Shown here one piece after another: positions 1 through 20,325 of a stretch of 64,000 nt of DNA. Location: IMG/VR virus record IMGVR_UViG_3300020735_000006, positions 35,950 through 99,949 of that record; one strand, 5' to 3'. The notes under the pieces were generated by a model. The model was not told the DNA's origin. It saw nothing but the letters and a program-made list of their open reading frames with translations, and searched no databases. The stretch is from a virus. Taxonomy: Duplodnaviria > Heunggongvirae > Uroviricota > Caudoviricetes. The first letter of the stretch is position 1. Each line of letters begins with the position of its first letter. Both the position numbers and the translations under genes were made by a program.

Positions 1-1
1 A

Positions 2-184
2 GAGAACAATTTTTATAAAGCATGGCAAGCCGGGTTAACATACCTAGAGAATAAAATTGATACTAAGTATTTCCGGTACGAGTGGAATAAAGCCACCGGA
101 TTTTTAGCATTTATTAGCCCAATGTACTATATTGGTGATGCTAGTTATGTAGATTCAGGCAATAACACCTACCTTAAATTTTAA
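2..184 (+). CDS. 3' end (C-terminal ~60 aa) of an upstream ORF, partial
   Basis: Frame 2 is open from the window edge to the TAA at 182-184; no stops in 61 codons. Confidence 0.4.
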   Translation, partial: ENNFYKAWQAGLTYLENKIDTKYFRYEWNKATGFLAFISPMYYIGDASYVDSGNNTYLKF

Positions 185-194
185 TCGAGCACAT

Positions 195-1139
195 ATGAAA
201 AAACTATTAGCAGTATTAGCCGCAGTATTTGCATTAACAGTTAACGCACAATCCAATAAAGAAGTTGTTATTATTACCAGCTTTCCTGTAGGATCTGGCC
301 CGGACAGTTTATTGCGAGAAATACAACCAGATTTACAAAAGATTTACAATGCACCAGTTATCATTGACAACAAACCCGGTGGAAACGGTGCAGTAGCATT
401 TGAAGCATGTAACAGATCAATTGAGTCACAAAAGACTACACTATGTTATACAGAGGCCGCCGTGTTTTGGGCTATTCCTAAAATATATGGCAATGATCGC
501 GTAACAAAGAATCTTAAATTTTTTACAGTTAGCCACTTTGCTCCGTTAGTATTAGTAACGTCGGAAAATGTAAACAATCGCCAAGAGCTCATTGAACATA
601 TTAAGCAGAACCCAAACTTTGGTAGCTGGGCAGTAGGGTCAGTGGGACAGATTACTGGACAAGAACTATCTAACTACTTAAAGATAGATGCCCAACATGT
701 TCCATACAAAGATTATGGTCAGTGGTTAATGGATGTGGCTAATAACAATCTAGGATTTAGTTTTCCTACTATCGGATCAGCTACTCCATTGTATCGTGGC
801 AATAAGATTAAGTTTATAGCAGTAGCAACAAAGCATCGCGACCCTGTGTTTTCGGATGTACCGACTATGGAAGAATACTTCCCGGGGTTAAAGAACTTTG
901 TGCCACTAGGCGCATACGGTGCGTTTTATGTAAACAAAGACATGCCCGCTGCAACTGAAAAAACTTTGTTAGCAGGAATGAAACAAGCATTGGCTAATCC
1001 CAATCTAAGAAGCAGTTTAATTATTCGCGGATATAGACCATGGACAAAGACGGATGCAGAAACAAGAAAAGTATTAGAAGCAGAACAAGAGCATTATTAT
1101 CAAGCTCTTAAGCAGTTTAATATTAATTTACGACAGTGA
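195..1139 (+). CDS. Secreted periplasmic solute-binding protein, TctC/Bug-family-like
   Basis: N-terminal signal peptide MKKLLAVLAAVFALTVNAQ. Segment NKPGGNGAVAFEA resembles the Bug/TctC 'KPGAGG' core. Size ~310 aa, typical of the family. Confidence 0.45.
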   Translation: MKKLLAVLAAVFALTVNAQSNKEVVIITSFPVGSGPDSLLREIQPDLQKIYNAPVIIDNKPGGNGAVAFEACNRSIESQKTTLCYTEAAVFWAIPKIYGNDRVTKNLKFFTVSHFAPLVLVTSENVNNRQELIEHIKQNPNFGSWAVGSVGQITGQELSNYLKIDAQHVPYKDYGQWLMDVANNNLGFSFPTIGSATPLYRGNKIKFIAVATKHRDPVFSDVPTMEEYFPGLKNFVPLGAYGAFYVNKDMPAATEKTLLAGMKQALANPNLRSSLIIRGYRPWTKTDAETRKVLEAEQEHYYQALKQFNINLRQ

Positions 1140-1175
1140 TGCAGGAGGCAACTCCTGACTAATCAAAGAAAGGAG

Positions 1176-1628
1176 TTGGTAATGGAATTATTTGTACAAT
1201 ATGAATCAATCTGCACTGAATACTATCATGAGGATAAAGAGTACGGTGATTGGTCAGAAACAATAGACTACGAAGTTAAGGGTGTAAGCATATCTAGCCG
1301 CGGACGTTGGTCGGGATTAGCCCACGACGAAGAAAAGATAAATGTTGGCTTTGAAGCAGAAGCCGGCACACCACTATACATCCTATGGATGACTTATGGA
1401 TCTGGTGATAGCTTTGGACACGGCGATGGTTACGGAGAAATCTTGTGGGTATTTAAAAACGCAGATGTTGCCAAAACAGCATTAGAAATTTTCCAGGCAA
1501 ATTCTGAACAATATTCAATTCCGATTAAGGACGATGCAGGTAATGTTGTTACATTGCATAACCCAGGTTCGGGTTATTTTGAATGTGTTAATTCATTGCA
1601 AGTAGATACATTTTTATTAAGCATTTAA
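1176..1628 (+). CDS. Hypothetical protein
   Basis: 150-aa ORF with RBS AAAGGAG 8 nt upstream of ATG. Confidence 0.5.
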   Translation: MVMELFVQYESICTEYYHEDKEYGDWSETIDYEVKGVSISSRGRWSGLAHDEEKINVGFEAEAGTPLYILWMTYGSGDSFGHGDGYGEILWVFKNADVAKTALEIFQANSEQYSIPIKDDAGNVVTLHNPGSGYFECVNSLQVDTFLLSI

Positions 1629-1643
1629 AGAAAGGAGCATAAC

Positions 1644-2213
1644 ATGCCAGCAGTATTTTTAGTAAGCGACACGCACTTTGGCCACGCCGGCATGTGCCGC
1701 TTCACACAAGCAGATGGAGTCACAAAACTCCGCCCGTGGACTGATCCAGACGAAATGGATGAGTTTATGATTAAAGCGTGGAACGAACGGGTAGGACCAA
1801 AGGACAAAGTATATCACCTTGGTGATGTAGTCATTAACCGTAGAAGTCTGACTACACTTAGTAGACTTAACGGCGACAAAGTTCTTATCCGCGGTAACCA
1901 CGATATCTTTAAGGATGATGATTACAGACAATATTTCCGTGAACTACGTGCATACCATATTATGAACGGACTTATCCTTAGTCACATTCCGCTACACCCA
2001 GAAAGTCTCGGCCGCTTTGGAACGAACATACATGGCCACCTCCATTCTAATAGAGTGTTATTGCCAAATGGAGATATTGATGTTAGGTATCACTGTGTTT
2101 GTGTTGAGCAGACACCAGACTTCGCCCCGATCCTCTTCGAAGATGTATTAAAGAGGATCAAAGATGAGGGAGGAACGGTTGGTTTCCGTAATGGAAATGG
2201 CCCTACAATGTAA
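1644..2213 (+). CDS. Calcineurin-like metallophosphoesterase
   Basis: Motifs DTHFGH, HLGDVV, GNHD and HGHLH match the phosphoesterase signature D-x-H / GD / GNH[DE] / GH. RBS AAAGGAG upstream. Confidence 0.8.
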   Translation: MPAVFLVSDTHFGHAGMCRFTQADGVTKLRPWTDPDEMDEFMIKAWNERVGPKDKVYHLGDVVINRRSLTTLSRLNGDKVLIRGNHDIFKDDDYRQYFRELRAYHIMNGLILSHIPLHPESLGRFGTNIHGHLHSNRVLLPNGDIDVRYHCVCVEQTPDFAPILFEDVLKRIKDEGGTVGFRNGNGPTM

Positions 2214-2218
2214 AAGTT

Positions 2219-3316
2219 GTGGGGCTTTTTTTTGAACTAAATAGTTGCATGGCAAACGAATATTGCAGGTATCTATCAAATGGTTTTAGATTTCTAGGAG
2301 CCGACTTAACATATCAACCCTGTTGTTGGGTCCCGGCATCTAACCCGATATATTCAGCCGACCAACTCAATCAAGTTAGAATAGACACCACAAAAAAAGT
2401 TTTAGCAAATAAAGAACAATACTGCCACGATTGTATTAACCGAGAATCACGCGGGTTTAACACTAGTATAAGAAATCATAGTTTTAAGTGCATTCCAGAG
2501 GATGCCGAAGATGGCGAAATAATTGATTTATCTATTCAAATTGATACAACGTGCAATGCAGCCTGTGTGATGTGTGGTCCGCATTTTAGTAGCTTATGGC
2601 AAAAGGAAGCAAATCCGAAGGCTATATTATTTGACGCTAGTGACAAATATAAAAATCTAATAGATATATTAGATCTGAGTAAGGTAAAATATCTTAGATT
2701 TTTTGGTGGAGAGCCATTAGTCAACGATAATCATTTAATTATGTTAAATGCAATTCAACACCCCGAACAAGTAAATCTTTTATACTTTACAAACGGTAGT
2801 ATTTTTCCAAACCAAGAAACTATACAAGCATGGAACAAATTTAATAAAGTTTTTATTAAAATTAGTATTGATGCTATTGATGATAGATTTCATTATATAC
2901 GCTGGCCATTAAAATGGAATAAAGTTGAAAATAATGTATATGAAATATGCAAATTGGACTGTGTTGCTTCTGTTATTATTACTAGCACAATAAATCCAAT
3001 GAATATTTTATACTTCGACGAACTAGAATCTTGGTTTACTAATTTAAAAACTAAATTTTTAAAAGTAAATACATTGGATACCAGTATATGCTATGGTACA
3101 TGGGGGTTAGATGCTATTCCTCAACAACTTCGGGAACAAGTAATTAAAAAATACGGAAATGATCATAGAATAGCAAAAATGTTAGATAGTATTCTAACTG
3201 TTGATTCCACAAAATGGAATAAGTTAGTTGCAGAAATGTTACGGCTAGATTTACAAAGGAATCTATCATATACAGAAATTTTCCCAGAAGTAATCTCGAT
3301 CGTAAACAACATATAA
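2219..3316 (+). CDS. Radical SAM domain protein (paralog A), N-terminal Cys-rich extension
   Basis: CNAACVMC is a CxxxCxxC radical-SAM motif. Downstream FFGGEPL is a glycine-rich SAM-binding motif. N-terminal extra cysteines (C..PCC..CHDC). Paralogous to the next ORF, including the shared block IRWPLKWNKVE. Confidence 0.6.
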   Translation: MGLFFELNSCMANEYCRYLSNGFRFLGADLTYQPCCWVPASNPIYSADQLNQVRIDTTKKVLANKEQYCHDCINRESRGFNTSIRNHSFKCIPEDAEDGEIIDLSIQIDTTCNAACVMCGPHFSSLWQKEANPKAILFDASDKYKNLIDILDLSKVKYLRFFGGEPLVNDNHLIMLNAIQHPEQVNLLYFTNGSIFPNQETIQAWNKFNKVFIKISIDAIDDRFHYIRWPLKWNKVENNVYEICKLDCVASVIITSTINPMNILYFDELESWFTNLKTKFLKVNTLDTSICYGTWGLDAIPQQLREQVIKKYGNDHRIAKMLDSILTVDSTKWNKLVAEMLRLDLQRNLSYTEIFPEVISIVNNI

Positions 3317-3322
3317 AATACA

Positions 3323-4504
3323 ATGGCTAATAAACATTGCAGAAACTTGAGTAATCAATATGCTCTTAGTACTACCAAATTTGGAGTAATTGAATATCGA
3401 CCATGTTGCCAATATACTGGCGAGAGAATCGCTATTGACGATCGAGAGAATTTTATCAAAGCCAAGGAATTTTTTAATAACACTAGTGGATGGATTCCTG
3501 GGTGTAACTCTTGCAAACACATGGAACAATCAAATGTACATAGTGTATCGTATAGAACTCAATCATTTACTAGAACAGCATCCGATTATGATCACAACGA
3601 GTGTGTATCGCTTGACATTACATTAGATTTAGAATGTAATGCCGCTTGTATTGTGTGTGGTCCTCATACCAGTAGTACCTGGGCTAAACTCGAAGGTAAG
3701 GATATGCGAAATAATCATGTTGCGTATTCTATGACTAAATTTAATCCGCAGAAAGATTTAGAAAAATATAATAACCAATTTCAAATACAGTTGGATTCTA
3801 GTGATACCGCAGGATCTGATGTGTATTTGCGACAAATTATTAAATACATTCCTGTTGACAAATTAGAGATATTATTGCTAAAAGGTGGCGAGCCGTTTTT
3901 GACCGATTTTCATAAAAAACTTATGACCTATATTATTTCTGTGCATCCCAATCCTAAACAAATTGTTATACGGTACAATACAAATTGTAGCGTATTTCCT
4001 GATGCCGAAGTTTTAGAACTGTGGAAACACTTTAAAGAAATACGGTTAAATTTAAGTTTGGATGCAATAGGTAAGCAGTTTAATTATATCCGTTGGCCAT
4101 TGAAATGGAATAAAGTTGAAAAAATTGTCAAGCGGTTTATCACCGAAACAGATGCTAAGTTTGTAGTACAATGTACAATTAATCCTTTAAATTTACTCTA
4201 TCATGCTGAATTGTGCTTGTGGGCCGAGCAAAACATTCCATTGGACCGAACATATTCTAAATCGGGTGTTATTGCAGTAACCAGGTGTTACGGAAATCTT
4301 GATTTAAGCTATGTTCCACGTGCATTAACAAACGAAAGTATCAACATGTATGGTGAAGATCACGAAATTAATAAAATATTAAAAACATTTACTGTAGAAA
4401 ATCGTAATATAGAATCAATGATTAAATTCCTCGAAAAACATGATAAAATACGTAGCGAAAATTGGCGAGAAACTTTTCCATTAGTTGTTCCGTTTTTAAG
4501 CTAA
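3323..4504 (+). CDS. Radical SAM domain protein (paralog B)
   Basis: CNAACIVC (CxxxCxxC), GGEPFL, and the IRWPLKWNKVE block shared with the previous ORF. N-terminal C..PCC..CNSC. Confidence 0.6.
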   Translation: MANKHCRNLSNQYALSTTKFGVIEYRPCCQYTGERIAIDDRENFIKAKEFFNNTSGWIPGCNSCKHMEQSNVHSVSYRTQSFTRTASDYDHNECVSLDITLDLECNAACIVCGPHTSSTWAKLEGKDMRNNHVAYSMTKFNPQKDLEKYNNQFQIQLDSSDTAGSDVYLRQIIKYIPVDKLEILLLKGGEPFLTDFHKKLMTYIISVHPNPKQIVIRYNTNCSVFPDAEVLELWKHFKEIRLNLSLDAIGKQFNYIRWPLKWNKVEKIVKRFITETDAKFVVQCTINPLNLLYHAELCLWAEQNIPLDRTYSKSGVIAVTRCYGNLDLSYVPRALTNESINMYGEDHEINKILKTFTVENRNIESMIKFLEKHDKIRSENWRETFPLVVPFLS

Positions 4505-4532
4505 CTATATTATTTCAAAGTAATTACTATAT

Positions 4533-5618
4533 ATGTATTATTCTGTAGATAACCAAAAATTTACTAATAAATTCTTAGCGGCATCGTATGCTGGAAAAAA
4601 TAATCTAACTTTACATTTTAACATGTATGAGTCGGCTTTTGACAATATAGATTGGTTAAAAGAACCTATAGAAAGTTGGGATCAGTTACTTGATATGCGA
4701 GCTACCCAAATTGCTGCAAAAAATAAACCCATTGTATTAAATTTTAGCGGTGGAACAGACAGCCTAACAATATACGAAGTTTTTAAACGTAATAATATAC
4801 ATATAGACATTATCTATACAAGAGCACGAGTGGGTGTCAACGACCGTAGTAGTTATTCTCCTGTGTACGACTTCCTTAATAAAGGCGTATACGATAAAAC
4901 TACTAAGATTGTGATTAGAGAAGATAATGCAGAATTATTTAACGAACTATATCCCAATGAGGACTGGGTATGGGACACGGCCCAAAGATATCAATTTGCT
5001 ATGGCACAAGAGTCACGCGAATATTCTAGCCGTATATTAGGTACAGACGATTTTATTTCTGTTATTGGACTTGAAAAACCTCGTTTGCATTTTACTGATG
5101 ATGGGGTATACTCTTACCAAGATGATGAAAACTATGTAAGGCCAATGAATGATAATACATTAGATTGTTTTTACATAACTCCAGATTTGCCAGCATTACA
5201 TGTTAAACAATCGTATATGTTATTAAACTATATAAGAAGGTTGGCACCTAAATCTTCATTAAACGAGTTGGAAAAATTTAACACTATTCACCAACCGTTG
5301 AAATTTAACTGGATTAATTATAGCATAAGTGGGTGTGGTAGATATGGCGACTTAAATGATAGTGCCACTCAACATGCAGGTAATGCTTGTTCAAAATTTA
5401 TTATTCCAACAACTGGACAATTTAGTGGTCAAGAGTATCAAGGTCGTGGTAGCGATTGGTATTCTAGTTTGGCCGGCACACAAGCATTTAAAAACTATAC
5501 ACAAGGGTTAACGAATGTAGTAAATGATTCTGCTGGTAAATTTTTACAGTGGGATCCTACTAATTTTTATTCTATTAAGCAATTCAGATCTAAATATTAT
5601 CAATTAAGTTTTATTTAA
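4533..5618 (+). CDS. PP-loop ATP pyrophosphatase, AsnB/WbuX-like sugar amidotransferase candidate
   Basis: NFSGGTDS matches the SGGxDS PP-loop motif. Size ~360 aa is compatible with N-acetyl-sugar amidotransferase or asparagine-synthase C-domain proteins. Confidence 0.5.
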   Translation: MYYSVDNQKFTNKFLAASYAGKNNLTLHFNMYESAFDNIDWLKEPIESWDQLLDMRATQIAAKNKPIVLNFSGGTDSLTIYEVFKRNNIHIDIIYTRARVGVNDRSSYSPVYDFLNKGVYDKTTKIVIREDNAELFNELYPNEDWVWDTAQRYQFAMAQESREYSSRILGTDDFISVIGLEKPRLHFTDDGVYSYQDDENYVRPMNDNTLDCFYITPDLPALHVKQSYMLLNYIRRLAPKSSLNELEKFNTIHQPLKFNWINYSISGCGRYGDLNDSATQHAGNACSKFIIPTTGQFSGQEYQGRGSDWYSSLAGTQAFKNYTQGLTNVVNDSAGKFLQWDPTNFYSIKQFRSKYYQLSFI

Positions 5619-6498
5619 GTTTGGCTTTCCAAAAACTTGCTATTTTCTCATTGAGTACCTGTGTTTCTTCCCTATTGTAATTTACAGGCACGCATAAATC
5701 TTTAGCATACAGATTTTTAATATTCGGCGAGTTAGCATTAGCACGGTGTAAAATATCATACAACTCGGTTACTTTATCCTGTGCAAGATTAGATGGAGCA
5801 AATATCTGGTATGTTGAGGTTAATTCATTAAATCCATTGTATCCTTGTTTAGCAAAGGTATTTAGATCTTTAGCAGTTCCGGTGTAGCCAATTATATTAA
5901 TTCGATCTTGCCACTGTGTTACATTAGTCGGAACAGCTACATTGAGATCCAATGACGCATTACCTAATAGGTCTTGCATCCCGGCGCTAGTACTAGGATA
6001 GCCAATGAAATCTAATTGTGTATTGGGAAGAATTTTTTGTAATTCTTTAGCTACAGTTTCGCCAGCAGTACCAAGAATTACACCAATTGTTAAACGTTTT
6101 TGTTTTTTTAATTCAGCAGTGGATTTATATTTTGTGCTAACTACAGCATACGGCGAACCTATACATTCTACTAACAGTGGTGTAAATTGTCTAGTATCGT
6201 AACTTTCGTTGGGATATAGCATAGGTCTAATAAAAAATCCGCTAGAAGAACTCATTAATGTAATTCCGCGATTGTTTAATGTATGCAAAGCTGCAACTGT
6301 ACCGCCAGCCCCTGGTTTGTTCTCAAATACAAAAACATATTTTGATTGTGATTTATTGGCTTGGTTAGCCAATTCTCTAACCCATTCGGCACCATTGGCA
6401 CTTACAGCGAATGGCCAAACTAATTGTACTGTTTCTTGTGCTGTTGCTGTATTTACTTTTACAAATAAAAATAAGATTGCGGCAATAATTTTTTTCAT
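5611..6498 (-). CDS. Secreted periplasmic binding protein, TctC/Bug-family-like
   Basis: Signal peptide MKKIIAAILFLFVKVNTATAQ. NKPGAGGTVAA motif. Second member of the family in the window. Confidence 0.5.
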   Translation of the reverse strand: MKKIIAAILFLFVKVNTATAQETVQLVWPFAVSANGAEWVRELANQANKSQSKYVFVFENKPGAGGTVAALHTLNNRGITLMSSSSGFFIRPMLYPNESYDTRQFTPLLVECIGSPYAVVSTKYKSTAELKKQKRLTIGVILGTAGETVAKELQKILPNTQLDFIGYPSTSAGMQDLLGNASLDLNVAVPTNVTQWQDRINIIGYTGTAKDLNTFAKQGYNGFNELTSTYQIFAPSNLAQDKVTELYDILHRANANSPNIKNLYAKDLCVPVNYNREETQVLNEKIASFWKAKLK

Positions 6499-7146
6499 TT
6501 AATATACTTTCTTTGATAGTAGTTGTGTTGCTTTTATTGACTGCAATGACTTCCAATAATCTAAGAAATCAAGTTGATATCGATTTGGGCTAGGAAAATT
6601 AACAAGGACCGTCGAATTAACAAAATCCTCTAGCTGCGTAATTTGATCGGGGGAAAATTTAGTTATTAAATTTAATAATTCTGGATCAACATCTTTATCA
6701 TAATATGATTTACTCCCACTTAAAATTTGTTTTAAATATTGTTTAGTATCATTGGGTGCATTAAAGTGGCGGCGACTCACAGCCGTAAACCAATATGCTT
6801 GTTTTTCGTAGGCCATTCTTACTTGCAAATGTATGTTAGTATATAATAAAATCTTGTAAGTATTACTACTAATTGATTGGTTTGTTTCGTATACATCTGG
6901 ATTAAATAATGGATTGCATATTAAAAATAATTTTGAACCATTTGCTTTTTTGAGTTCTAAATTGTTGGGCCAAAATTCTGTATCTTTCCATGTATATGGA
7001 TTAATTGATAACTCGGCGGGAAATTGTTGAGTAATCATGGATTGTACTGTTTCTATATTATACTGGTATTTCCCAGATAACAGTAGATAGTAGTAAAGAG
7101 CAAATCCTCCCGATCCACCTTGATATAATATAGTAACATCTTTCAT
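6499..7146 (-). CDS. Hypothetical protein (possible P-loop/sulfotransferase-like fold)
   Basis: 215-aa ORF abutting the previous gene. N-terminal LYQGGSGGF glycine-rich loop. Confidence 0.4.
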   Translation of the reverse strand: MKDVTILYQGGSGGFALYYYLLLSGKYQYNIETVQSMITQQFPAELSINPYTWKDTEFWPNNLELKKANGSKLFLICNPLFNPDVYETNQSISSNTYKILLYTNIHLQVRMAYEKQAYWFTAVSRRHFNAPNDTKQYLKQILSGSKSYYDKDVDPELLNLITKFSPDQITQLEDFVNSTVLVNFPSPNRYQLDFLDYWKSLQSIKATQLLSKKVY

Positions 7147-7189
7147 TATGATATTTATTGCCCTGTATTTTACATTATAAATATTCTAT

Positions 7190-8341
7190 ATGACAACATC
7201 AACACTTTATGTCCTTTCCAGAGCCCCGAATGATAAATTTACATACAAGTTATATACTGATTTGTTATCTACACTAACCTGCGACTTTGAGGCATACTAT
7301 ATTTGGTCGGATCCTCCTGCTATACTTAAAAGATTTATGAATTATAAGGTTTTTACAAAACCCAATGTTATTATCGGCGTAAAAGATATGTTGGATTTGT
7401 GGTTAGATCATAATTTTTGGGATGGTAAACCTAGTGCCGGGGTAGAACTAATAGATAATATGGCCGCCCGTTTTCCTGAAACAAATTTTATTATTTTCAC
7501 TAGTCTAGAAAATATTAATCTCGAAGTAATAAAATCTACAAACATACAATTCGTACAATGGGGCGGCGACATAGTAAATCAAGCAGACTCATATCGATAT
7601 GTTATGCCTGTATTGGATAAAAATTTTAATTCCGATAAATCATTTATTAGTTTAAACCGGAATCGTCGACAGCACCGGGTAGTAACGTTAAGTTATCTAT
7701 TTGGTAAAGGGTATAACGAGTACGGCGAAATTACATACCTTGGTCAGTATATAGATGCACAGATTAATAATTTACTCGATTATCTACCTTGGAGATTTGA
7801 AGAACATCAAGATGACGCCCGTACTGCTATGTTGTCTGGATATCCAAAATTTTACAATAATAAATCGTTGGCAGCCGATGATTATAATATCTACGACGAA
7901 ATTAACGATAATGTTACAAACTTTAATCAAAATTTAAGAGAAAGATATCAAAATAGTTTTGTTGAGATTGTATCCGAATCGTCTTTTAGTGCCCCAAGTT
8001 ACTTAATAACAGAGAAATGGTTGAATAGTGTATATGGGTGTAATTTTCCTATCTTACTAAGTGGATGTAGTGCAATCGCCCACTTAAGAGAAGTGGGATT
8101 TGATGTGTTTGATGATATTATTGATCATACGTACGATACTATAGCCAATCCGTTCGATCGTATTATCTCGGCAATTGACAACAACAAAAGATTATTAATA
8201 GATGTAGACTATGCCAAGCAGTTATGGGAAGCTAATACACACAGATTTGAAAAGAACATCGAAGTGGCAAAAACTACAATGTATGATTGGTATAAACATC
8301 GTGCTACTGAACAATTTGCCCAATTGACGTGGAATAATTGA
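7190..8341 (+). CDS. Hypothetical protein (possible glycosyltransferase)
   Basis: 383-aa ORF within the sugar-modification region. No motif recognised. Confidence 0.4.
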   Translation: MTTSTLYVLSRAPNDKFTYKLYTDLLSTLTCDFEAYYIWSDPPAILKRFMNYKVFTKPNVIIGVKDMLDLWLDHNFWDGKPSAGVELIDNMAARFPETNFIIFTSLENINLEVIKSTNIQFVQWGGDIVNQADSYRYVMPVLDKNFNSDKSFISLNRNRRQHRVVTLSYLFGKGYNEYGEITYLGQYIDAQINNLLDYLPWRFEEHQDDARTAMLSGYPKFYNNKSLAADDYNIYDEINDNVTNFNQNLRERYQNSFVEIVSESSFSAPSYLITEKWLNSVYGCNFPILLSGCSAIAHLREVGFDVFDDIIDHTYDTIANPFDRIISAIDNNKRLLIDVDYAKQLWEANTHRFEKNIEVAKTTMYDWYKHRATEQFAQLTWNN

Positions 8342-8396
8342 CATATATAGCAATCTGTGTTAAACTTAGTTTTTACAAATCAACCTTAGGAATAAC

Positions 8397-8627
8397 ATGT
8401 CATCAAAATACCATAGTCGTCACGAACAGTTAGACGTAGAGAAATGCGTAAAAAATGCAGGTGGCAATAAGTTTGAATTAATTATTATGGCTGCACAACG
8501 CGGTCGCGAAATCCGTAGTCAAAATCAACACAGTATCCATATGGAACATCATCATGGTGTTGTTACAGCATTATTGGAAATCCAAGGCGGCAAAGTAGAT
8601 CAAGAGTATTTTAAAAAGATTAAGTAA
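8397..8627 (+). CDS. RNA polymerase omega subunit (RpoZ)-like protein
   Basis: NKFELIIMAAQRGREI aligns with the omega core NRFDLVLVAARRARQM. Downstream VTALLEIQGG resembles VIALREIEEG. Length 76 aa. Confidence 0.5.
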   Translation: MSSKYHSRHEQLDVEKCVKNAGGNKFELIIMAAQRGREIRSQNQHSIHMEHHHGVVTALLEIQGGKVDQEYFKKIK

Positions 8628-8690
8628 CATGTACAAGTATCAATTGTTGGTAACGTATTAAACTATACAAGAATTACTGAGTAGTATACA

Positions 8691-8783
8691 GGAGAGCTGG
8701 CCGAGCGGTCGAAGGCACCCGCCTACTAAGCGGGCATGGATCTTAACAATCCATCTGGGGTTCGAATCCCTAGCTCTCCGCCA
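8691..8783 (+). tRNA. Type II tRNA (Ser-like, long variable arm), apparent anticodon ACU
   Basis: Cloverleaf: acceptor GGAGAGC/GCTCTCC; 3-bp D stem; anticodon stem CCCGC/GCGGG with loop CTACTAA; 21-nt variable arm; T loop TTCGAAT; encoded CCA. Confidence 0.8.
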
Positions 8784-8785
8784 AG

Positions 8786-8805
8786 TACTAATAAGTTTGG
8801 GCATA
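8786..8805. repeat. Left arm of perfect 20-bp inverted repeat (TACTAATAAGTTTGGGCATA)
   Basis: Exact reverse complement of 9025-9044. Confidence 0.9.
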
Positions 8806-9024
8806 TGGCGTGGCGGCCATCTGATACATGTGGGAGTTTGAGTAACAGTCGTAGTACCGGCCCTGTGGCATGAGAATGTAATATCGGGTACTCCCGAGGG
8901 TACAATAAATTTTAAAACTGTGAAAGAGTTGCTAGATTCCATGAAAGAGCCTGTGAAGGCGAGCCTTAATGACTGGGTAGCTCCTGGTTGGCATTGTGGT
9001 CCACTGTCGAAAAGCAGATTTTAG

Positions 9025-9044
9025 TATGCCCAAACTTATTAGTA
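9025..9044. repeat. Right arm of 20-bp inverted repeat
   Basis: TATGCCCAAACTTATTAGTA is the reverse complement of 8786-8805. Confidence 0.9.
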
Positions 9045-9058
9045 ATAAATAGAGATAC

Positions 9059-9132
9059 GCCCCTTTAGTTAAATGGTATAACACTTGATTTGTAATCATG
9101 GATTAGCAGTTCGATTCTGTTAAGGGGCACCA
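9059..9132 (+). tRNA. tRNA-Thr (anticodon UGU)
   Basis: Acceptor GCCCCTT/AAGGGGC; D stem GTTA/TAAC; anticodon loop TTTGTAA; T loop TTCGATT; encoded CCA. Confidence 0.8.
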
Positions 9133-9138
9133 AATTTA

Positions 9139-9438
9139 ATGTCAAAGAAAAAACCCGAACCTATTAAACCAAGAACTACTTGGGGTCAGATGCTAACTAA
9201 AGAAGAATTGTTAGCACTACTAGATAGGATAGAGAAAAAACAACTAGCGAAAAAAGAAATGTCCGAAGAAGCCAAGAAGTCTAAGAATCCTTTTATCAAC
9301 GCCGCCAACGCCGCCAAGGCAGTAGCCGCAAATCCAAAAGTGCCCGGCACTACTACGGCACAAGTGCAAAAAGCTAAATCTACAGCTAAAGTCACTACAA
9401 ACAAACCAGCAAAAAAATCAGCAGGACGTGGTCGTTGA
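9139..9438 (+). CDS. Lys/Ala-rich histone H1-like basic protein
   Basis: 99 aa. C-terminal AKAVAANPKVPGTTTAQVQKAKSTAKVTTNKPAKKSAGRGR is low-complexity KA-rich, as in H1/AlgP-like nucleoid proteins. Confidence 0.5.
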   Translation: MSKKKPEPIKPRTTWGQMLTKEELLALLDRIEKKQLAKKEMSEEAKKSKNPFINAANAAKAVAANPKVPGTTTAQVQKAKSTAKVTTNKPAKKSAGRGR

Positions 9439-9866
9439 AGCCAAAGTTAGCACAAGCCTATATGGACACAGCAAAGATATTTGCTGAACTTAGCCATGCT
9501 AAAAGACTCCATGTGGGTGCTATTATAGTCAAAGATGATCGCATTATATCAATTGGCTACAATGGTATGCCCACGGGTTGGGATAACAACTGCGAAGATG
9601 TTATCCAACATTCCGACGATACAACCACACTAAAAACTAAACCAGAGGTATTGCATGCCGAAACCAACGCCATTGCGAAACTGGCAAAATCAAACGAAAG
9701 TGGGCTTGATGCTAGTTTATTTGTCACTCACGCTCCTTGTATGGATTGTGCCAAACTTATATATCAAAGTGGCATTTCTACTGTTTACTATCGTAATAGT
9801 TATCGTGAGTCTACAGGACTTGATTTCCTTACCAAATCTGGAGTAGAAGTAATTAATTTAGGCTAA
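9435..9866 (+). CDS. cd: dCMP deaminase
   Basis: HAETNAI and PCMDCAKLI are the zinc-binding HAE / PCxxC motifs of the CMP/dCMP deaminase family. ATGA overlap with the previous ORF. Confidence 0.8.
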   Translation: MKPKLAQAYMDTAKIFAELSHAKRLHVGAIIVKDDRIISIGYNGMPTGWDNNCEDVIQHSDDTTTLKTKPEVLHAETNAIAKLAKSNESGLDASLFVTHAPCMDCAKLIYQSGISTVYYRNSYRESTGLDFLTKSGVEVINLG

Positions 9867-9887
9867 TTTCTTGGACTAAATAAACTT

Positions 9888-9925
9888 GACTTACGCTTCC
9901 GGCGTATGTTATTATCAACCTAATA
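9888..9925 (+). promoter_or_regulatory. Putative sigma70-type promoter for the porin gene
   Basis: TTGACT followed ~17 bp later by TATGTTATTAT. Confidence 0.3.
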
Positions 9926-9971
9926 GTAATAAACTATTATCGTAGTACAATAATCAAAAAGGAGAAGTAAC

Positions 9972-11141
9972 ATGAAAAAGCTAATTTTAGCTATATTAGC
10001 AGTAACTGGATTTGGTGTAGCACAAGCCCAATCGAGCGTGACCGTATACGGCATCTTGGATGTTGGATACATTGGAAGTAACTACAAGGGAACTGGTACT
10101 TCGGCTACGTCGAAACAAACTACTAGTGCAATTGGCAATAACGGTGAATCTACTTCACGTTTAGGTTTCAAAGGCCAAGAAGATTTAGGTGGCGGAACTT
10201 CTGCTCTCTTTACCTTTGAAACTGGAATCAATCCGGCAGATAGTACATTATCTACATTTAATACACGTCAAGCATTTGTCGGTATTAAACAATCTGGATT
10301 AGGTCAAGTATTAGTAGGTACACAAAATACACCAATCTTTAATGCTGTTCAAATTACCGATCCGGGTAATGCAAACAACATGCTTGGTAATGCTATCTAT
10401 TCCACAAGCCCACAAGCCAACGGCAACGCTGGTACTGCACCGTATGCTGGTACTAGTTCAAGTGCTGGCGCAAGTGATGCATTTACATTGCGTACTTCGA
10501 ACGCAGTTAGTGTAACTTCGGAAAAGTTTGCTGGATTTAGCGGCACAGGTTTGTTAACTCAAAATAATCAAAATAATACACAAACAAGTCCTACCGAAGG
10601 TGGTCAAAATAACCACAGTGGTTGGGGCCTTGGCGTAAATTACGAGTGGCAAAAATTGTATTTGACAGCTAACTATCAAGCTCTTAAGAGTTTACAGTCG
10701 GCGGCTACTTTAACTAGTCCAACTCCAGCTATCTGGAATACAACTAGTGGTGGTACAAATACACAAGACAATCAAACATACGTTGCTGCAACATATGACT
10801 TTGGTATCTTGAAAGCCTATGCTCAATATGTAAACCGCAAGGCTACTGATACATTGAACACAGGTTACTATGCTCAACGTAAAGCTGAACAAATTGGTGT
10901 ACGTGGTTTTATTACTCCAACTATTGAAGCTTGGGTATCTGGCGGTTTAGGTAAAGTAACAGCGTTTGGCCAAGGTCAACCGTCTGCTAATTTCACCGCA
11001 TATCAGTTAGGAAGCAATTACTATCTAAGCAAGCGTACAAACTTGTATGCAATCTTTGGTTCAACACAAACTGCAAGTACATCAACTAATAGTGGTGTAT
11101 CTGGTAACAGTTATGGTTTAGGTGTACGTCATACGTTCTAA
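9972..11141 (+). CDS. Outer-membrane porin (Gram-negative general porin family)
   Basis: Signal peptide MKKLILAILAVTGFGVAQAQ. N-terminal SVTVYGILDVGY. Gly/Thr/Ser/Asn-rich beta-strand composition. C-terminal Phe (…GVRHTF). Confidence 0.7.
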   Translation: MKKLILAILAVTGFGVAQAQSSVTVYGILDVGYIGSNYKGTGTSATSKQTTSAIGNNGESTSRLGFKGQEDLGGGTSALFTFETGINPADSTLSTFNTRQAFVGIKQSGLGQVLVGTQNTPIFNAVQITDPGNANNMLGNAIYSTSPQANGNAGTAPYAGTSSSAGASDAFTLRTSNAVSVTSEKFAGFSGTGLLTQNNQNNTQTSPTEGGQNNHSGWGLGVNYEWQKLYLTANYQALKSLQSAATLTSPTPAIWNTTSGGTNTQDNQTYVAATYDFGILKAYAQYVNRKATDTLNTGYYAQRKAEQIGVRGFITPTIEAWVSGGLGKVTAFGQGQPSANFTAYQLGSNYYLSKRTNLYAIFGSTQTASTSTNSGVSGNSYGLGVRHTF

Positions 11142-11161
11142 TTAATTAATTAGAGTTCAAC

Positions 11162-11190
11162 AAAGGGGCTTAGGCCCTTTTGTTTTTTTA
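11162..11190 (+). terminator. Rho-independent terminator
   Basis: AAAGGG-GCTTAGG-CCCTTT hairpin followed by TGTTTTTTT. Confidence 0.7.
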
Positions 11191-11201
11191 AAGGATAAGA
11201 A

Positions 11202-11750
11202 ATGAAGAAATTATTATTAGTATTAGCATTAGTAGCATCATCTGCATTTGCGTCAGACAACTGGCAAAATGGTGATGGTACTTTAAATTGGAAAAACGGT
11301 GACGGCAAATTATGCTGGCGTGATAATTCATGGACTCCGGCCACAGCCGCACCAGGATGCGATGGATGGATTGCCCCTAAGGTAAACACAGTGACTTCCA
11401 CTAAGGTCACACTACAAGCCGACACATTGTTTAACTTTGATAAGTCAGTATTAAAGCCAGAAGGTTTTGCTGTTTTGGATAACCTGGTCGGGCAAGTAAG
11501 TGGCGTTAAAGTAGAAGTAATCGTTGCAGTTGGTAATACTGACAGTATTGGTACCGATGCTTATAACCAAGCACTTGGTCAACGTCGGGCTAATGCGGTG
11601 AAGGTATACTTAGTTAGCGAAGGTTTACCTGCTGACAAGATCTACACCGAATCAAAAGGCAAATCTAATCCTGTAGCAAGTAACGCTACAGCAGAAGGTC
11701 GTAGCCAAAACCGCCGTGTTGATATTGAAGTAGTTGGTACACAAAAGTAA
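11202..11750 (+). CDS. OmpA-family protein (C-terminal peptidoglycan-binding OmpA domain)
   Basis: Signal peptide. N-terminal NWQNGDG/NWKNGDG repeat. C-terminal NFDKSVLKPEG…GNTDSIGTDAYNQALGQRRANAVKVYL…NRRVDIEV is an OmpA_C-like signature. Confidence 0.8.
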   Translation: MKKLLLVLALVASSAFASDNWQNGDGTLNWKNGDGKLCWRDNSWTPATAAPGCDGWIAPKVNTVTSTKVTLQADTLFNFDKSVLKPEGFAVLDNLVGQVSGVKVEVIVAVGNTDSIGTDAYNQALGQRRANAVKVYLVSEGLPADKIYTESKGKSNPVASNATAEGRSQNRRVDIEVVGTQK

Positions 11751-11756
11751 CCAAAA

Positions 11757-11786
11757 TAAAAGCCCACTTAAAGTGGGCTTTTTGTT
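11757..11786 (+). terminator. Rho-independent terminator
   Basis: AGCCCACT-TAA-AGTGGGCT stem-loop plus TTTT. Confidence 0.7.
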
Positions 11787-11813
11787 GACTTTAATTTCTT
11801 GATATGTTATACT
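11785..11813 (+). promoter_or_regulatory. Sigma70-type promoter TTGACT-N17-TATACT
   Basis: Same architecture as the early-promoter family. Drives the small ORF at 11847. Confidence 0.5.
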
Positions 11814-11846
11814 AGCTACTAGTTAAACCCTAATTGGAGTAGTATA

Positions 11847-12008
11847 ATGTTTGAATCACTTGAAGTCCGTAAAGCGGCAAATGGTTTTATTTTAGTAGTA
11901 ACAACAGAAGAAGACGCTAAAGAGTTTGTTTATGATACTGAACGCAAATTGCTTCGTGTTATTAAAGCACACTTAGGCGAAAAGATTACAGCACAAGACG
12001 CTGATTAA
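11847..12008 (+). CDS. Small hypothetical protein (53 aa), not in the supplied ORF track
   Basis: ATG with RBS GGAG upstream and the promoter above. Translates MFESLEVRKAANGFILVVTTEEDAKEF… to TAA at 12006-12008. Confidence 0.4.
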   Translation: MFESLEVRKAANGFILVVTTEEDAKEFVYDTERKLLRVIKAHLGEKITAQDAD

Positions 12009-12808
12009 TATAATGCAAGCCCGGCATTCAATCCTTTAAGCGTTAAGTTTAATGATTGAATACGGGTTGTATCACCTGTAAAGTTGTTCGGACTTACAGC
12101 ATCAACAATAACCTCAGTAGTTAATCCGTGACTGTCTAAAAAGTTACGTGCTAATTCACTGAGCTTATACTTCTCGGGATATGCAATATTAATATCATCC
12201 CATTCAATTCCTTGAATTACCGCATCCATAACAGTAGGAATATCCTCTAGGTTAATGTAGTCAAAATAATGATCTTGAAAAATATGTATTGGCTTTTCTG
12301 CAAGATATAGTCTACGGAAGAAGCGTACAGGTTTTTCAGTATGATGGAATACACCAAAGAATCGTAAGTTAGTAAAGTTTTTGGTAGTCTTGCAAGTACG
12401 GGCCACAATGTTCTTAGCGTATGCGTAACTAGCCATGGGCATACGATCAAACAATAGTTCTTCTGATGCACAATCGATGTTCTGCGTAGTATCAAACTCG
12501 TTACCTGTACCAGCATTAATAAACTGACCAAACTTGTGTCTATTGCGCCATATATTCATGAACATGGCAAGGTTTTGTTGTTCTTCTTCGTGGTTTATGC
12601 CGTATATATTGTCTCTACCGGCTAGGGCAGTATGTATAACAATATCAATTTTATATGTGTCGAAAAAGCGACTAACACGATCTAAATTAGTCAATTCTAA
12701 TTCACTGTGACTAGGCGCTAATACGTTATAGTCTCGAGAGTAATATTCTTTAAGGTAGCTACCTACAAAGCCGTTGCCACCTGTGATGAAGATTGTCTGT
12801 TTACTCAT
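12005..12808 (-). CDS. NAD(P)-dependent sugar epimerase/reductase (short-chain dehydrogenase family)
   Basis: N-terminal IFITGGNGFVGSYL Rossmann GxxGxxG motif. Sits in the sugar cluster. Confidence 0.6.
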   Translation of the reverse strand: MSKQTIFITGGNGFVGSYLKEYYSRDYNVLAPSHSELELTNLDRVSRFFDTYKIDIVIHTALAGRDNIYGINHEEEQQNLAMFMNIWRNRHKFGQFINAGTGNEFDTTQNIDCASEELLFDRMPMASYAYAKNIVARTCKTTKNFTNLRFFGVFHHTEKPVRFFRRLYLAEKPIHIFQDHYFDYINLEDIPTVMDAVIQGIEWDDINIAYPEKYKLSELARNFLDSHGLTTEVIVDAVSPNNFTGDTTRIQSLNLTLKGLNAGLALY

Positions 12809-13470
12809 ATGCGATTTTTAGCCATTTCTTTTGCACGTGGAATACGTACATGATCATATAAGCCGGGCCAGTGTATAATCCAATCGCCTGGTTCCCATGT
12901 ACCGCGATTACCAAACATATCTTTACTAGTATCACAATAGTCGTATACAGCAGTTTCGTAACTGTTTAATTGATTCTGTGGTACAATCTTAACTATATCT
13001 AAGTTATCTTCGATGGTGTTAATCATAACCCATTGTTCAGTCCACGGATGATCTCGATAAAATGGTTCATCCTTGTGGCTTAAAATCATTTCAAAGTATG
13101 CACGGCCTTCTGGGCTATTACGTACTAGGAAGTTTCCTGCATTTAAGTTTAACCGGTCACTAGCAATAATAAAGTGATAATCATTATCAATGCGATCTTC
13201 AATTTTAATATTACTGTTAGTAATCATTGCATCGCACTCGCTAAACAATAGCCATTCAATTTCTGGATGCTTTTTAAAAATATCTAATACTACATACATC
13301 TTATTAAAGTTCATATAAGGACTATATGGTTCTGTCTTTAATGTAAATGAATCTTCCTTGCACGGGAAGAATAAGTATCCGTGTTTATCACAATACTCTT
13401 GCTTACTTGCATCTGTTAAGTCTGCAAACTCTTTAATGTTTTCGGTGCTCATACTAGCAACTGCGTACAT
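12805..13470 (-). CDS. Hypothetical protein, possible nucleotide-diphospho-sugar transferase
   Basis: 221 aa. Overlaps neighbouring genes by 4 nt. No firm motif. Confidence 0.35.
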   Translation of the reverse strand: MYAVASMSTENIKEFADLTDASKQEYCDKHGYLFFPCKEDSFTLKTEPYSPYMNFNKMYVVLDIFKKHPEIEWLLFSECDAMITNSNIKIEDRIDNDYHFIIASDRLNLNAGNFLVRNSPEGRAYFEMILSHKDEPFYRDHPWTEQWVMINTIEDNLDIVKIVPQNQLNSYETAVYDYCDTSKDMFGNRGTWEPGDWIIHWPGLYDHVRIPRAKEMAKNRI

Positions 13471-13471
13471 A

Positions 13472-14374
13472 TTAAATAATCTTTCTAAAGTATTCTATAG
13501 TATTTTGTAGACCTTGATTGAGATCTACTTGTGGTTCCCAACCAGTTGCTTGTTTAATTAAAGATAAGTTTGGAACAGGCTGTGTAGGTTCAACTACATT
13601 AGTACCAGTAAATGTAACAGAACTTGCAGAATTTGTCAATGATACTATACGGGTAGCTAACTCTTTAATAGTAAGTGTTTCTGGGTTACCCACATCAACT
13701 GGAGTTGTAAAATCATCCTCTGTGGCCATTAACCCTATTAGGGCATCTACTGTATCTGTAGCATAGCAAAAGTTTCTATACTGTTCGCCGTTACCATTAA
13801 TTGATATAGGTTCGTTACGTAAAGCCTGTACAATAAAGTTTACAATAGCACGGCCATCATTGACTTGTAAGTTTGGCCCATAGGTATTAAACAGTCTGGC
13901 TACCTTAGTGCGTACACCGTGTTGGGCATTATAAGAATAGAATAGAGTTTCTACTGCTTGCTTGCCACCTAAATAACAATGTCTAGGATTGAATACATTC
14001 TTGTTTGGCTCAAAAGTAACCGAACCATATACTTCTGCGGTACTAGTTTGTAGTATACGAGCATTGTATCGTTTTGCCAACTCTAATAAGTTTATTGCAC
14101 CCAATATGTTACTGCGAATAGTGTCTGTAGGTTCAAGTTGATAACGTTTTGGACTTGCAGGACTTGCTAAGTTATAAATTTCGTCTACTTCTAAATCCAA
14201 TGGTTCTTGTATATTATGGGTGATGAGTTTAAGTTGTTCACTTTTGTGTACATTACTTTGACTACCTGTGGAAAAGTTATCAAGACAATATACCATATTA
14301 CCTTGCGATAATAGTTTTTGAATTAAATGACTACCTAGGAATCCAGCACCACCAGTTATTAGAATTTTTTTCAT
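13472..14374 (-). CDS. UDP-glucuronate decarboxylase (UXS)-like NAD-dependent dehydratase
   Basis: KILITGGAGFLGSHLIQKLL…VYCLDNFSTGSQSNV closely resembles the UXS / dTDP-glucose dehydratase N-terminus. Confidence 0.65.
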   Translation of the reverse strand: MKKILITGGAGFLGSHLIQKLLSQGNMVYCLDNFSTGSQSNVHKSEQLKLITHNIQEPLDLEVDEIYNLASPASPKRYQLEPTDTIRSNILGAINLLELAKRYNARILQTSTAEVYGSVTFEPNKNVFNPRHCYLGGKQAVETLFYSYNAQHGVRTKVARLFNTYGPNLQVNDGRAIVNFIVQALRNEPISINGNGEQYRNFCYATDTVDALIGLMATEDDFTTPVDVGNPETLTIKELATRIVSLTNSASSVTFTGTNVVEPTQPVPNLSLIKQATGWEPQVDLNQGLQNTIEYFRKII

Positions 14375-14423
14375 TGATATATAAAATTTGACAGCTAGGT
14401 ATTTATGTGCTTAAATACGATAT

Positions 14424-15287: not shown

Positions 15288-16006
15288 ACATAATTATTCC
15301 AATGGCAGGGCGAGGTAGTCGCTTTGCTGAAAAACAAATCCTGACGCCCAAGCCATTACTTGATGTAAACGGACGTACTATGATTGAACGTGCCATTGAA
15401 AGTTTAGATTTGTATGGTACTTGGCACTTTGTTATACGTGATGATGAACATCGTGAACGTGTACAAGCAATGATTGAAACAATCAAACCTGGTAGTAAGT
15501 TTATTGCAATTGATTATGTTACCGAAGGTCCTGCTAGTAGCGGATTGTTATTTAAAGATCAGATTAATAACGATGAAGAACTTGTTATTGCTAACTGTGA
15601 TCAAATCATGGAATGGACTAGCAGTAGATTCCTGGACTATGTCCGCCACTATGATGGTGCAGTAGTTACATACCATGCACATACAGATAAAAACAGTTAT
15701 GCTCGAGTAAACAAAGAAGGCCTTGTACAAGAAATCCGTGAGAAGCAAGTAATAAGCAACATCAGTCTTAACGGTATTCACTATTGGCGAGAAGGCCGCA
15801 TGTTTGTTGATAGTGCAGAAGCAATGATAGCCACCAATGATCGTGCACCTAATGGAGAGTTCTACATTGGACCTAGTTATAATCATATGATCGCAACAGG
15901 ATTAACTGTGGGCATTTACCACATACCTAACCAGTTTCATCATCCAGTTGGTGTTCCCGACGACTTAGACAAATTTATAAGATATGAAAACAGCAAAACT
16001 TTCTGA
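15284..16006 (+). CDS. Sugar-phosphate nucleotidyltransferase
   Basis: IIPMAGRGSRF matches the G-x-G-[ST]-R signature of the NTP_transferase family. 4-nt overlap with the upstream gene. Confidence 0.7.
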   Translation: MNIIIPMAGRGSRFAEKQILTPKPLLDVNGRTMIERAIESLDLYGTWHFVIRDDEHRERVQAMIETIKPGSKFIAIDYVTEGPASSGLLFKDQINNDEELVIANCDQIMEWTSSRFLDYVRHYDGAVVTYHAHTDKNSYARVNKEGLVQEIREKQVISNISLNGIHYWREGRMFVDSAEAMIATNDRAPNGEFYIGPSYNHMIATGLTVGIYHIPNQFHHPVGVPDDLDKFIRYENSKTF

Positions 16007-19230: not shown

Positions 19231-19283
19231 TAAGCAATATCATAGTAAAATAAATACTAGCATCAATTAATAATGGAAGAAAC

Positions 19284-20324: not shown

Positions 20325-20325
20325 T

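Follow-up and report, generated by a model that had tools for sequence, protein, structure and literature searches.

The 64,000-nucleotide window analyzed here (positions 35,950 to 99,949 of the IMG/VR virus record IMGVR_UViG_3300020735_000006) encodes, within its first 12 kb, four predicted envelope proteins of cellular type: two periplasmic solute-binding proteins from the family of tripartite tricarboxylate transporters (TTT), denoted TctC-1 and TctC-2, a general porin, and a small OmpA-family protein (Table 1). All four open reading frames (ORFs) described in an earlier note on this DNA were recovered, and their assignment to the TctC, Porin_4, and OmpA families held, with every Pfam match above the curated cutoff. 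Each protein opens with MKK and continues into a hydrophobic core and then an A/V-x-A site, in line with the Sec signal peptides claimed for all four, which were judged by a simple heuristic. Of the 132 six-frame ORFs that reach 70 amino acids, 6 passed a crude screen for exported proteins; 4 of these were the envelope genes and the other 2 look spurious, so that the four appear, from their sequences, to be the only clearly exported proteins of the window. The four genes do not form a single cluster: they are spread over three sites among more than 10 other genes, and TctC-2 is encoded on the opposite strand.

Table 1. Features of the envelope-protein region, in positions of the window
Feature	Position	Strand	Evidence or description
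TctC-1, Bug/TctC (TTT) family binder of periplasmic solutes, Sec exported, 314 aa	195-1139	+	Pfam TctC, 1.5e-24
Variable island	2219-8341		Between the conserved metallophosphatase gene (1644-2213) and the RNA polymerase omega-like gene (8397-8627)
TctC-2, divergent, shorter binding protein of Bug/TctC fold, 295 aa	5611-6498	-	Pfam TctC, 7e-8; in the variable island
Candidate sigma-70-like promoter of the porin gene	9886-9915	+	TTGACT-18 nt-TG-n-TATTAT
General porin, Porin_4 type, 389 aa, C-terminal Phe	9972-11141	+	Pfam Porin_4, 6e-38
Intrinsic terminator after the porin gene	11159-11184	+	11-pair stem (5 GC), then TTTTTTT
Small exported OmpA-family peptidoglycan-binding protein, 182 aa	11202-11750	+	Pfam OmpA, 1.3e-19
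Bidirectional intrinsic terminator after the OmpA gene	11758-11782		11-pair stem on both strands, T run

The porin scores 131.8 bits against Porin_4 (cutoff, 27) and 56 bits against Porin_1 (cutoff, 23.7). Its signal peptide, MKKLILAILAVTGFGVAQA/QS, is followed by a mature start reading SSVTVYG, and the protein ends in ...VRHTF; both the N-terminal VTVYG motif and the C-terminal Phe reported previously can be read directly, F389 is invariant in 43 sequences, and the invariant residues of the pore family are kept. In the AlphaFold2 (AF2) model (pLDDT, 78; pTM, 0.79), 16 barrel strands enclose a 54-residue L3 with short helices, and the best Foldseek matches are BpsOmp38, Omp32, and PorB (E values of 1e-19 to 1e-15; TM score to the target, 0.72 to 0.81). 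As modeled, the protein is a 16-stranded general porin of the betaproteobacterial Porin_4 type. With Omp32 (1e54), BpsOmp38 (8wv0), and PorB (3a2s), it shares the 16-strand barrel, the inward-folded L3, the C-terminal Phe, and the N-terminal VT(V/L)YG, SRLGFKG, and NRQ motifs, whereas identity to these proteins is ∼21 to 23% and the phage porin is longer, with longer, low-confidence L1, L3, and L5.

An AAGGAG ribosome-binding site lies near position 9960, downstream of the candidate promoter. Matches to the sigma-70 pattern are no commoner in this region than in shuffled sequence (49 found versus 47.9 expected), so that the site at the porin gene is informative only through its conservation across species. 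Two relatives (L010 and L005) retain both hexamers with a spacer that has diverged, a third relative (L008) has TTGACA-17-TAGAAT, and the AAGGAG Shine-Dalgarno sequence before the porin is kept in the relatives. The promoter previously assigned to the porin thus survives as a candidate with hexamers conserved in relatives, although matches of this kind occur at chance frequency regionally, and the site may function as a promoter. Terminator-like sites occur at twice the shuffled expectation, and both the porin and the OmpA gene do have their own, each with an 11-pair stem and a T run, as the earlier note had stated.

To trace the porin, its alignment was scanned against 185,579 species genomes (one genome per species). 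Of the best 80 loci, 79 belong to Polynucleobacter, Burkholderiaceae, or metagenome-assembled genomes labeled "uncultured beta proteobacterium," and 1 is a short contig labeled Alphaproteobacteria. Identity to isolates is at most 58%, the best named match is that of P. wuianus (59%), and no host porin exceeds ∼60%. In a neighbor-joining tree of 101 sequences, 15 porins from phages or phage-size contigs form one clade (100/100 bootstraps) that is nested among many Polynucleobacter paralogues and contains no genome-derived sequence. In relatives with 62 to 74% porin identity, the porin is found at the same locus, after the dCMP deaminase gene, in a conserved order of ORF148, metallophosphatase, omega, ORF99, dCMP deaminase, porin, ORF53, sugar genes, and GroES/EL. 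Synonymous divergence (dS) between clade members is ∼1 or more; the ratio of nonsynonymous to synonymous divergence (dN/dS) is 0.098 for the sole unsaturated pair and 0.09 to 0.26 for the other pairs, and the porin appears to be under purifying selection. Within the phage clade, the barrel strands are 72% identical, compared to 58% identity to host porins. The contrast is wider in the surface loops (63% within the clade versus 30% to host porins; L5, 67% versus 24%) and in L3 (57% versus 34%). The proposed history is a single ancient capture of a host porin by the phage lineage, which would have retained the gene ever since, nearly as part of its core and always at one locus.

A single origin of all phage porins was considered and rejected. 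The porin of another phage-type contig, L173, is 51% identical to that of the window and nearer to other Polynucleobacter paralogues, which makes at least one further independent capture likely. The L173 locus (8739-10549) suggests an independent capture that yielded the same porin-OmpA gene pair. Contigs of the L173 type, which reach 299 kb, also encode ribosomal protein S21, ClpX, rubrerythrin, rubredoxin, and 2-oxoglutarate (2OG) oxygenases.

The OmpA-family protein matches the NCBIfam equivalog NF045787 (OmpABordt) at 265 bits (cutoff, 200) over profile positions 14 to 194 of 194, and its Pfam OmpA domain spans residues 76 to 171. Both matches bear out the C-terminal peptidoglycan-binding domain previously described, as does the binding motif TDxxG...N..L..RRA with its conserved Asp and Arg, which reads NTDSIGTDAYNQALGQRRANAV; the roles of these two residues are assumed to be those in OmpA_C-like domains generally. 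Only ∼55 residues precede the OmpA_C-like domain, an 8-stranded N-terminal membrane barrel (∼170 residues) is not present, and the PRK10808 profile of classical OmpA matches in its C-terminal part only (positions 218 to 349; 100.9 bits versus a cutoff of 277). This combination argues for a periplasmic or anchored peptidoglycan binder rather than a barrel OmpA. Full-length identity to Polynucleobacter OmpA proteins is 70%, and dN/dS is ∼0.15 to 0.2. Like the Bordetella-type small OmpA proteins and their Polynucleobacter orthologues, the phage protein matches NF045787 along its full length above the equivalog cutoff; unlike the host orthologues (187 to 195 amino acids), the phage proteins are shorter (178 to 185 amino acids), sit on branches much longer than those of the tight host cluster, and are encoded directly after a porin gene. 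In L007 and L173, as in the window, the OmpA gene lies directly 3' of the porin gene, an order seen at none of the 81 host porin loci, whereas L005, L006, and L010 have the porin and no OmpA at that site. Some members of the phage lineage would have added a host-type small OmpA directly downstream of the porin.

TctC-1 matches Pfam TctC at 87.4 bits (cutoff, 27) over positions 2 to 265 of 274. Its family profile matches Bug27, TBP, BugE, and BugD at 1e-80 to 1e-70 and also TphC and AdpC, the whole set spanning 1e-80 to 1e-65, and its matches to Bug-fold structures (1e-80 to 1e-47) point to the two-lobe Bug fold. The nearly invariant family residues (alignment A3) are kept, as are all of the motifs FPxGxGxD, ENxPGxxG, GSxGxG, and HVPYKD, which we take, from the BugD and BugE structures, to be tied to the carboxylate ligand site. 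The best named cellular relative, from Hylemonella, is 31% identical, and relatives with 43 to 46% identity are on phage-like contigs. One contig with a TctC-1 relative encodes GroEL, a porin, rubrerythrin, TctC, a radical-S-adenosylmethionine (SAM) protein, and omega; another encodes ribonucleotide reductase, a PAAR protein, two TctC proteins, and a ligase. Between two TctC genes of a 151-kb phage-like contig (L011, 6537-7985) lies a gene for a 482-amino-acid protein that was considered as a TctA and rejected, the protein being soluble and carrying the adenylate-forming motif SGGTTGSAKQ. On the P0138 contig, proteins of 476 to 477 amino acids, near the L011 protein in size, flank a TctC gene.

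TctC-2 matches Pfam TctC closer to the threshold (32.7 bits versus a cutoff of 27; positions 3 to 255 of 274). Its AF2 model (pLDDT, 96.4) superposes in Foldseek on the closed form of TphC (TM score, 0.83; root mean square deviation, 2.4) and on BugD, TBP, AdpC, and MatC (TM scores of 0.80 to 0.83). Relatives are few, at only 896 among 1.84 billion representatives. The KPG(A/G)GG core described earlier for both binders is present in TctC-2 (KPGAGG, within a conserved ENKPGAGG), whereas TctC-1 reads KPGGNG at this position; the other family motifs of TctC-2 read PFAVSANGAEW, IGVILGTAGE, and FIGYPS. The phage TctC proteins thus share the two-lobe fold of BugD, Bug27, TphC/TBP, AdpC, and MatC, and their orphan status, with no adjacent tctAB, is common for Bug/TctC proteins of Betaproteobacteria. 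Both differ from these binders in being phage encoded, and TctC-2 is in addition shorter, with a changed first motif, FPxGxGxD, and a changed HVPYKD motif.

The island that contains TctC-2 comprises two radical-SAM genes, a PP-loop ORF (4533-5618; motif, NFSGGTDS), the TctC-2 gene, ORF 6499-7146, and ORF 7190-8341, which is glycosyltransferase-like on motif alone (a GT10-like "ITEK," identified by eye). In L010, omega directly follows the metallophosphatase without the island, and in L005 and L006 the gap between the two is ∼1.5 kb, with none of the island genes of the window except a weak orf361 paralogue. Portions of the module are found surrounding TctC in L148 and L170: L148 has the order PP-loop ORF, ORF215, TctC, and ORF383, and in L170 the gene for a binding protein of the tripartite ATP-independent periplasmic (TRAP) transporters, DctP (1082-2017), adjoins a TctC-2-like gene at the island position. 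Homologues of the PP-loop ORF adjoin TctC genes in ∼20 of ∼79 viral loci (including L092, L148, L164, and L170), often in multiple copies, an association that may reflect a functional link or just a multicopy phage family.

The phage nature of the DNA is evident from the rest of the window, which encodes GroEL, a UvsW-like helicase, primase, DnaB, a class I ribonucleotide reductase, and a large sugar-modification cluster. The UvsW-like protein is 49 to 55% identical to its counterparts in the jumbo myoviruses Phosso, Atu_ph07, and PA5oct and in a Klebsiella jumbo phage. Nine genes at positions 33720 to 48259, running from the UvsW-like helicase to primase and DnaB, are colinear with the 313- to 328-kb region (L172) of Sinorhizobium phage Phosso, an isolated 469-kb jumbo phage, at 30 to 55% amino acid identity, and in Phosso this block adjoins terminase, tail tube, and head completion genes. 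By this colinearity, the window is placed in the Atu_ph07/Phosso-like group of jumbo myoviruses. Capsid and terminase genes are absent from the 64 kb, and it is the Phosso synteny and the IMG/VR classification that connect the window to structural genes. A candidate virion structural protein (53848-54561), proposed from a weak PHROG match, was dropped for want of tblastn support in the phage collection, so the phage identity rests on the Phosso synteny, the replication genes, and IMG/VR.

The envelope genes are embedded in this phage DNA. Sixteen contigs, drawn from at least six samples, encode the identical porin protein among the same neighbor genes; the contig names suggest different assembly pipelines. 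The longest of these contigs is 296 kb, the longest with TctC-1 is 296,236 bp (presumably one and the same), and IMG/VR relatives reach 344 kb. Phage-conserved genes stand on both sides of the four genes, also in the relatives with 62 to 74% porin identity. GC content is even along the window, and G+C content at third codon positions (GC3) is 0.24 to 0.32 in the four envelope genes, compared to a phage background of 0.286 ± 0.041 and to 0.33 to 0.39 in host porins. Taken together, the recurrent gene order, the phage-like GC3, the even GC content, and the Phosso colinearity exclude a chimeric assembly as far as the tools used allow, and the envelope genes are phage borne, as the earlier note had supposed, and not a piece of host chromosome.

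Among sequenced phages, the region has few counterparts. Megablast of positions 1 to 12000 gave no match, and tblastn against 50,697 phage records gave no porin relative, OmpA matches at the domain level only, and a single weak match to TctC-1 (20% identity, on a gut phage contig). In PHROGs, several families cover OmpA-domain proteins, and none covers the porin or TctC. The phage group of the window thus appears to have no close isolated relative; the nearest isolated phages are virulent jumbo myoviruses. A near-identical relative contig, RtvN7139, differs from the window in having a peptide-chain release factor gene (PCRF and RF-1 domains), located between those for TctC-1 and the metallophosphatase; it is called as two pieces of 35 and 164 amino acids, which may reflect a frameshift or a truncated gene.

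The betaproteobacterial host proposed earlier is consistent with these results and is narrowed by the porin and OmpA relatives to Polynucleobacter (Burkholderiaceae), the most likely host of this large freshwater phage. Acquisition from the host lineage is traced for part of the set: the nesting of the porin clade among Polynucleobacter paralogues and the 70% identity of OmpA indicate that both derive from that lineage, to judge from their sequences, whereas no donor can be named for either TctC.

What the four proteins do for the phage is suggested mainly by the company they keep in its relatives. TctC relatives are encoded on at least 77 IMG/VR contigs, several of them 260 to 375 kb, and the closer relatives of both TctC subfamilies are, where the context is readable, on phage-like contigs. 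Many members of the phage lineage would carry at least one orphan TctC binder, of diverged subfamilies found mainly on phage-like contigs. The 64-kb window has no multipass membrane ORF and no TctA or TctB, so both TctC proteins are orphans whose partner must be encoded by the host or elsewhere in the phage genome. Among the accessory uptake genes of the relatives are extra TctC copies (two in L011), TRAP DctP beside TctC (L170), and a permease of the SSF family, a 483-amino-acid solute symporter encoded ∼10 kb upstream of the porin on the P0007 contig. Anion-selective Omp32 is among the best structural matches to the window porin, and Polynucleobacter is listed among the genera that contribute TTT-system genes in river water (PMC7597016). 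The earlier note had read the genes as envelope remodeling, for example, receptor masking or superinfection exclusion. The accessory genes of the relatives point to solute uptake at least as strongly, and the recurrence of TctC, DctP, and SSF genes in the phage group favors uptake over receptor masking.

During infection, host RNA polymerase would transcribe the porin gene from its own sigma-70-type promoter, the host Sec machinery would export all four proteins, and the β-barrel assembly machinery (BAM) complex would insert the porin into the outer membrane via its C-terminal Phe signal. OmpA would bind peptidoglycan, and the periplasmic TctC proteins would capture organic acids and pass them to the TctAB membrane components of the host. 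The net effect would be that import of carboxylate carbon and energy is kept up or raised during a long infection in nutrient-poor water. The chances of this whole account, in which a ∼300-kb freshwater jumbo myovirus of Polynucleobacter sustains organic-acid import, are judged to be about even. What the sequences show is the identity of the proteins, their carriage by a phage, the host-lineage origin of the porin and OmpA, and purifying selection; when the genes are expressed, where the proteins go, which transporter and ligands they work with, and how the phage gains are inferred, and for expression and gain the purifying selection and the conserved promoter hexamers and ribosome-binding site are indirect support.

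This proposal has an established counterpart in the PstS proteins of cyanophages (PMC6359870). There, too, a virulent phage encodes a host-type, Sec-exported periplasmic binder without membrane partners of its own, one that presumably couples to the transporter of the host and keeps nutrients entering during infection. PstS, however, belongs to an ATP-binding cassette (ABC) system, binds phosphate, and has been studied by measurements of uptake and expression, whereas the phage TctC proteins belong to the TTT family, whose known ligands are carboxylates, and share only ∼30% identity with named cellular proteins. A second parallel is the viral OmpL-like porin encoded next to glnK-amtB on contigs from marine oxygen minimum zones, where an uncultivated virus likewise combines a beta-barrel porin with solute-uptake genes, and the OmpL-amtB pair was read as an auxiliary uptake function (PMC8115048). 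OmpL is of a different porin family and of Flavobacteriales origin and is found on short contigs; the window porin, in contrast, is of the Porin_4 type and of Polynucleobacter origin, occupies a fixed locus across a jumbo-phage clade, and is paired with OmpA.

Several observations weigh against an uptake function. The TctC proteins would have to fit the membrane subunits of the host despite identities of only ∼30% to named cellular TctC, and OmpA has no obvious role in such a model. Outer-membrane porins are usually abundant and stable, and one more may add little flux. The clade-specific surface loops of the porin also fit a surface-related role. Coupling of porin and TctC genes in hosts, suggested by TctC genes beside the porin in L018, L038, and L079, was rejected: by hidden Markov model (HMM) count, linkage is not above background (5 TctC genes, in 3 of 81 loci covering 545 kb). 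Finally, the changed motifs of TctC-2, together with island neighbors that recur with TctC elsewhere, suggest that this protein may act outside transport.

The loops lead to the best-surviving alternative, superinfection exclusion, in which the phage porin, together with OmpA, would displace or thin out the host surface proteins that serve this phage or its competitors as receptors, thereby shielding the infected cell from secondary adsorption and saving progeny virions from being lost on it. The clade-specific extracellular loops, L5 above all, speak for it, as do the moron-like arrangement of the porin gene, with its own host-type candidate promoter and terminator, and a porin-OmpA pairing that is specific to phages. 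There is precedent in the Lc porin of the lambdoid phage PA-2 and in other prophage outer-membrane proteins. Lc and the related prophage porin NmpC are presumably general trimeric porins expressed, moron-like, from their own promoters; they are of the enterobacterial OmpC type, are carried by temperate phages, and act in lysogenic conversion and phage exclusion. No similarity to the window porin is detectable at the sequence level (no tblastn match in the 50,697 phage records). Exclusion, however, leaves the recurrent periplasmic TctC and DctP genes and the SSF genes unexplained, stable host porins already in the membrane would remain exposed within one lytic cycle, and a loop contrast of this kind is to be expected in any case, the host sequences compared being diverged paralogues. 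On balance, exclusion is considered rather improbable, though it deserves serious weight.

Both remaining explanations rank below uptake and exclusion. In the first, the phage would resupply the porin and a peptidoglycan tether, as the two most abundant structural components of the outer membrane, while host transcription is off in a long infection, so that the envelope stays intact up to lysis, the TctC proteins being unrelated passengers. The porin and OmpA genes are indeed adjacent and kept together in diverged relatives, and the same genome encodes GroEL, an SPFH/Band 7 protein, and the large sugar-modification cluster. Such envelope maintenance, however, presupposes turnover of outer-membrane proteins within one infection and disregards the recurrent solute-binding genes, and the three relatives that retain the porin without OmpA at that site count against it as well; it is regarded as quite unlikely. 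The last, a misjoined piece of host chromosome or recently transduced, functionless host DNA, might be entertained given proteins of typical cellular types with no porin or TctC family in PHROGs and no porin relatives and essentially no TctC relatives among isolated phages, but it is exceedingly improbable and refuted as far as the tools used allow, in view of the recurrence of the gene order in 16 contigs from several samples and apparently different pipelines, the phage genes on both flanks, the uniform composition and phage-like GC3, and a fully supported phage clade with no host porin above ∼60% identity and a dN/dS of ∼0.1 to 0.2.

Other genes of the window extend this picture of a large phage with cellular-type functions. 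A RuBisCO-large-subunit-like protein (16282-17487, plus strand; Pfam RuBisCO_large, 3.6e-36) is encoded within the sugar-modification cluster (12005-22265) and is conserved in the close relatives L001 and L002. Its best NCBIfam similarities, all far below the cutoffs, are to type III RuBisCO, the MtnW enolase, and OiaX; its role, as a RuBisCO-like enzyme, is probably in sugar-phosphate chemistry and not in CO2 fixation. The RNA polymerase omega subunit (rpoZ/Rpb6-like; 76 amino acids, 8397-8627, plus strand) matches Pfam at 1.2e-7 and TIGR00690 at 30.5 bits (cutoff, 23.6) and is conserved in L005, L008, L010, and L170, which suggests that the phage modifies the host RNA polymerase. Two tRNA genes follow (8691-8783 and 9059-9132): a tRNA-Thr (TGT) and a 93-nucleotide tRNA-Ser reported with the anticodon ACT, which is unusual in bacteria, where AGY is normally read by GCT. 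GroEL (25409-27031; Pfam, 1.3e-73) is preceded in relatives by GroES just upstream. Finally, an SPFH/Band 7 membrane-scaffold-like protein (31577-32434; Pfam, 1e-13) bears the PHROG label "lipoprotein."

Each part of the locus has a precedent, in phage porins, PstS, or OmpA-domain PHROGs, so that it adds another case to what phages are already known to do and reveals no new principle. A literature search found no Polynucleobacter jumbo phage with a porin or TctC and no "phage-encoded porin," returning only tctA domain matches and the viral OmpL; nor did it find TTT binders as a recurrent phage gene, a near-core porin in jumbo phages, the porin-OmpA pairing, or the link to a Polynucleobacter host. 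Polynucleobacter is ubiquitous in lakes, and few of its phages have been described; from sequence, the porin and OmpA together strongly assign a set of uncultivated phages of 300 kb to this host. The TctC subfamilies specific to phages lend themselves to expression and direct ligand screening.

Phages with host-type uptake proteins alter what infected cells take from the water, and cyanophage PstS showed the relevance of this to nutrient cycles. The locus described here extends the PstS idea to organic-acid uptake, to a long-kept outer-membrane porin of jumbo phages, and to Polynucleobacter. A stronger version, put forward only tentatively and doubtful as it stands, is that this clade of jumbo phages builds an import route of its own, in which a lineage-core porin would be combined with viral TTT binders (in relatives, also TRAP binders) that hijack the TctAB or DctQM components of the host. 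If so, the phage-specific porin-OmpA pair could also alter the cell surface with respect to competing phages. The phage, and not the cell, would then set which organic acids an infected Polynucleobacter imports, and infected cells of this genus, which ranks among the most abundant bacteria of fresh water, would enter lake carbon cycling with a distinct substrate spectrum.

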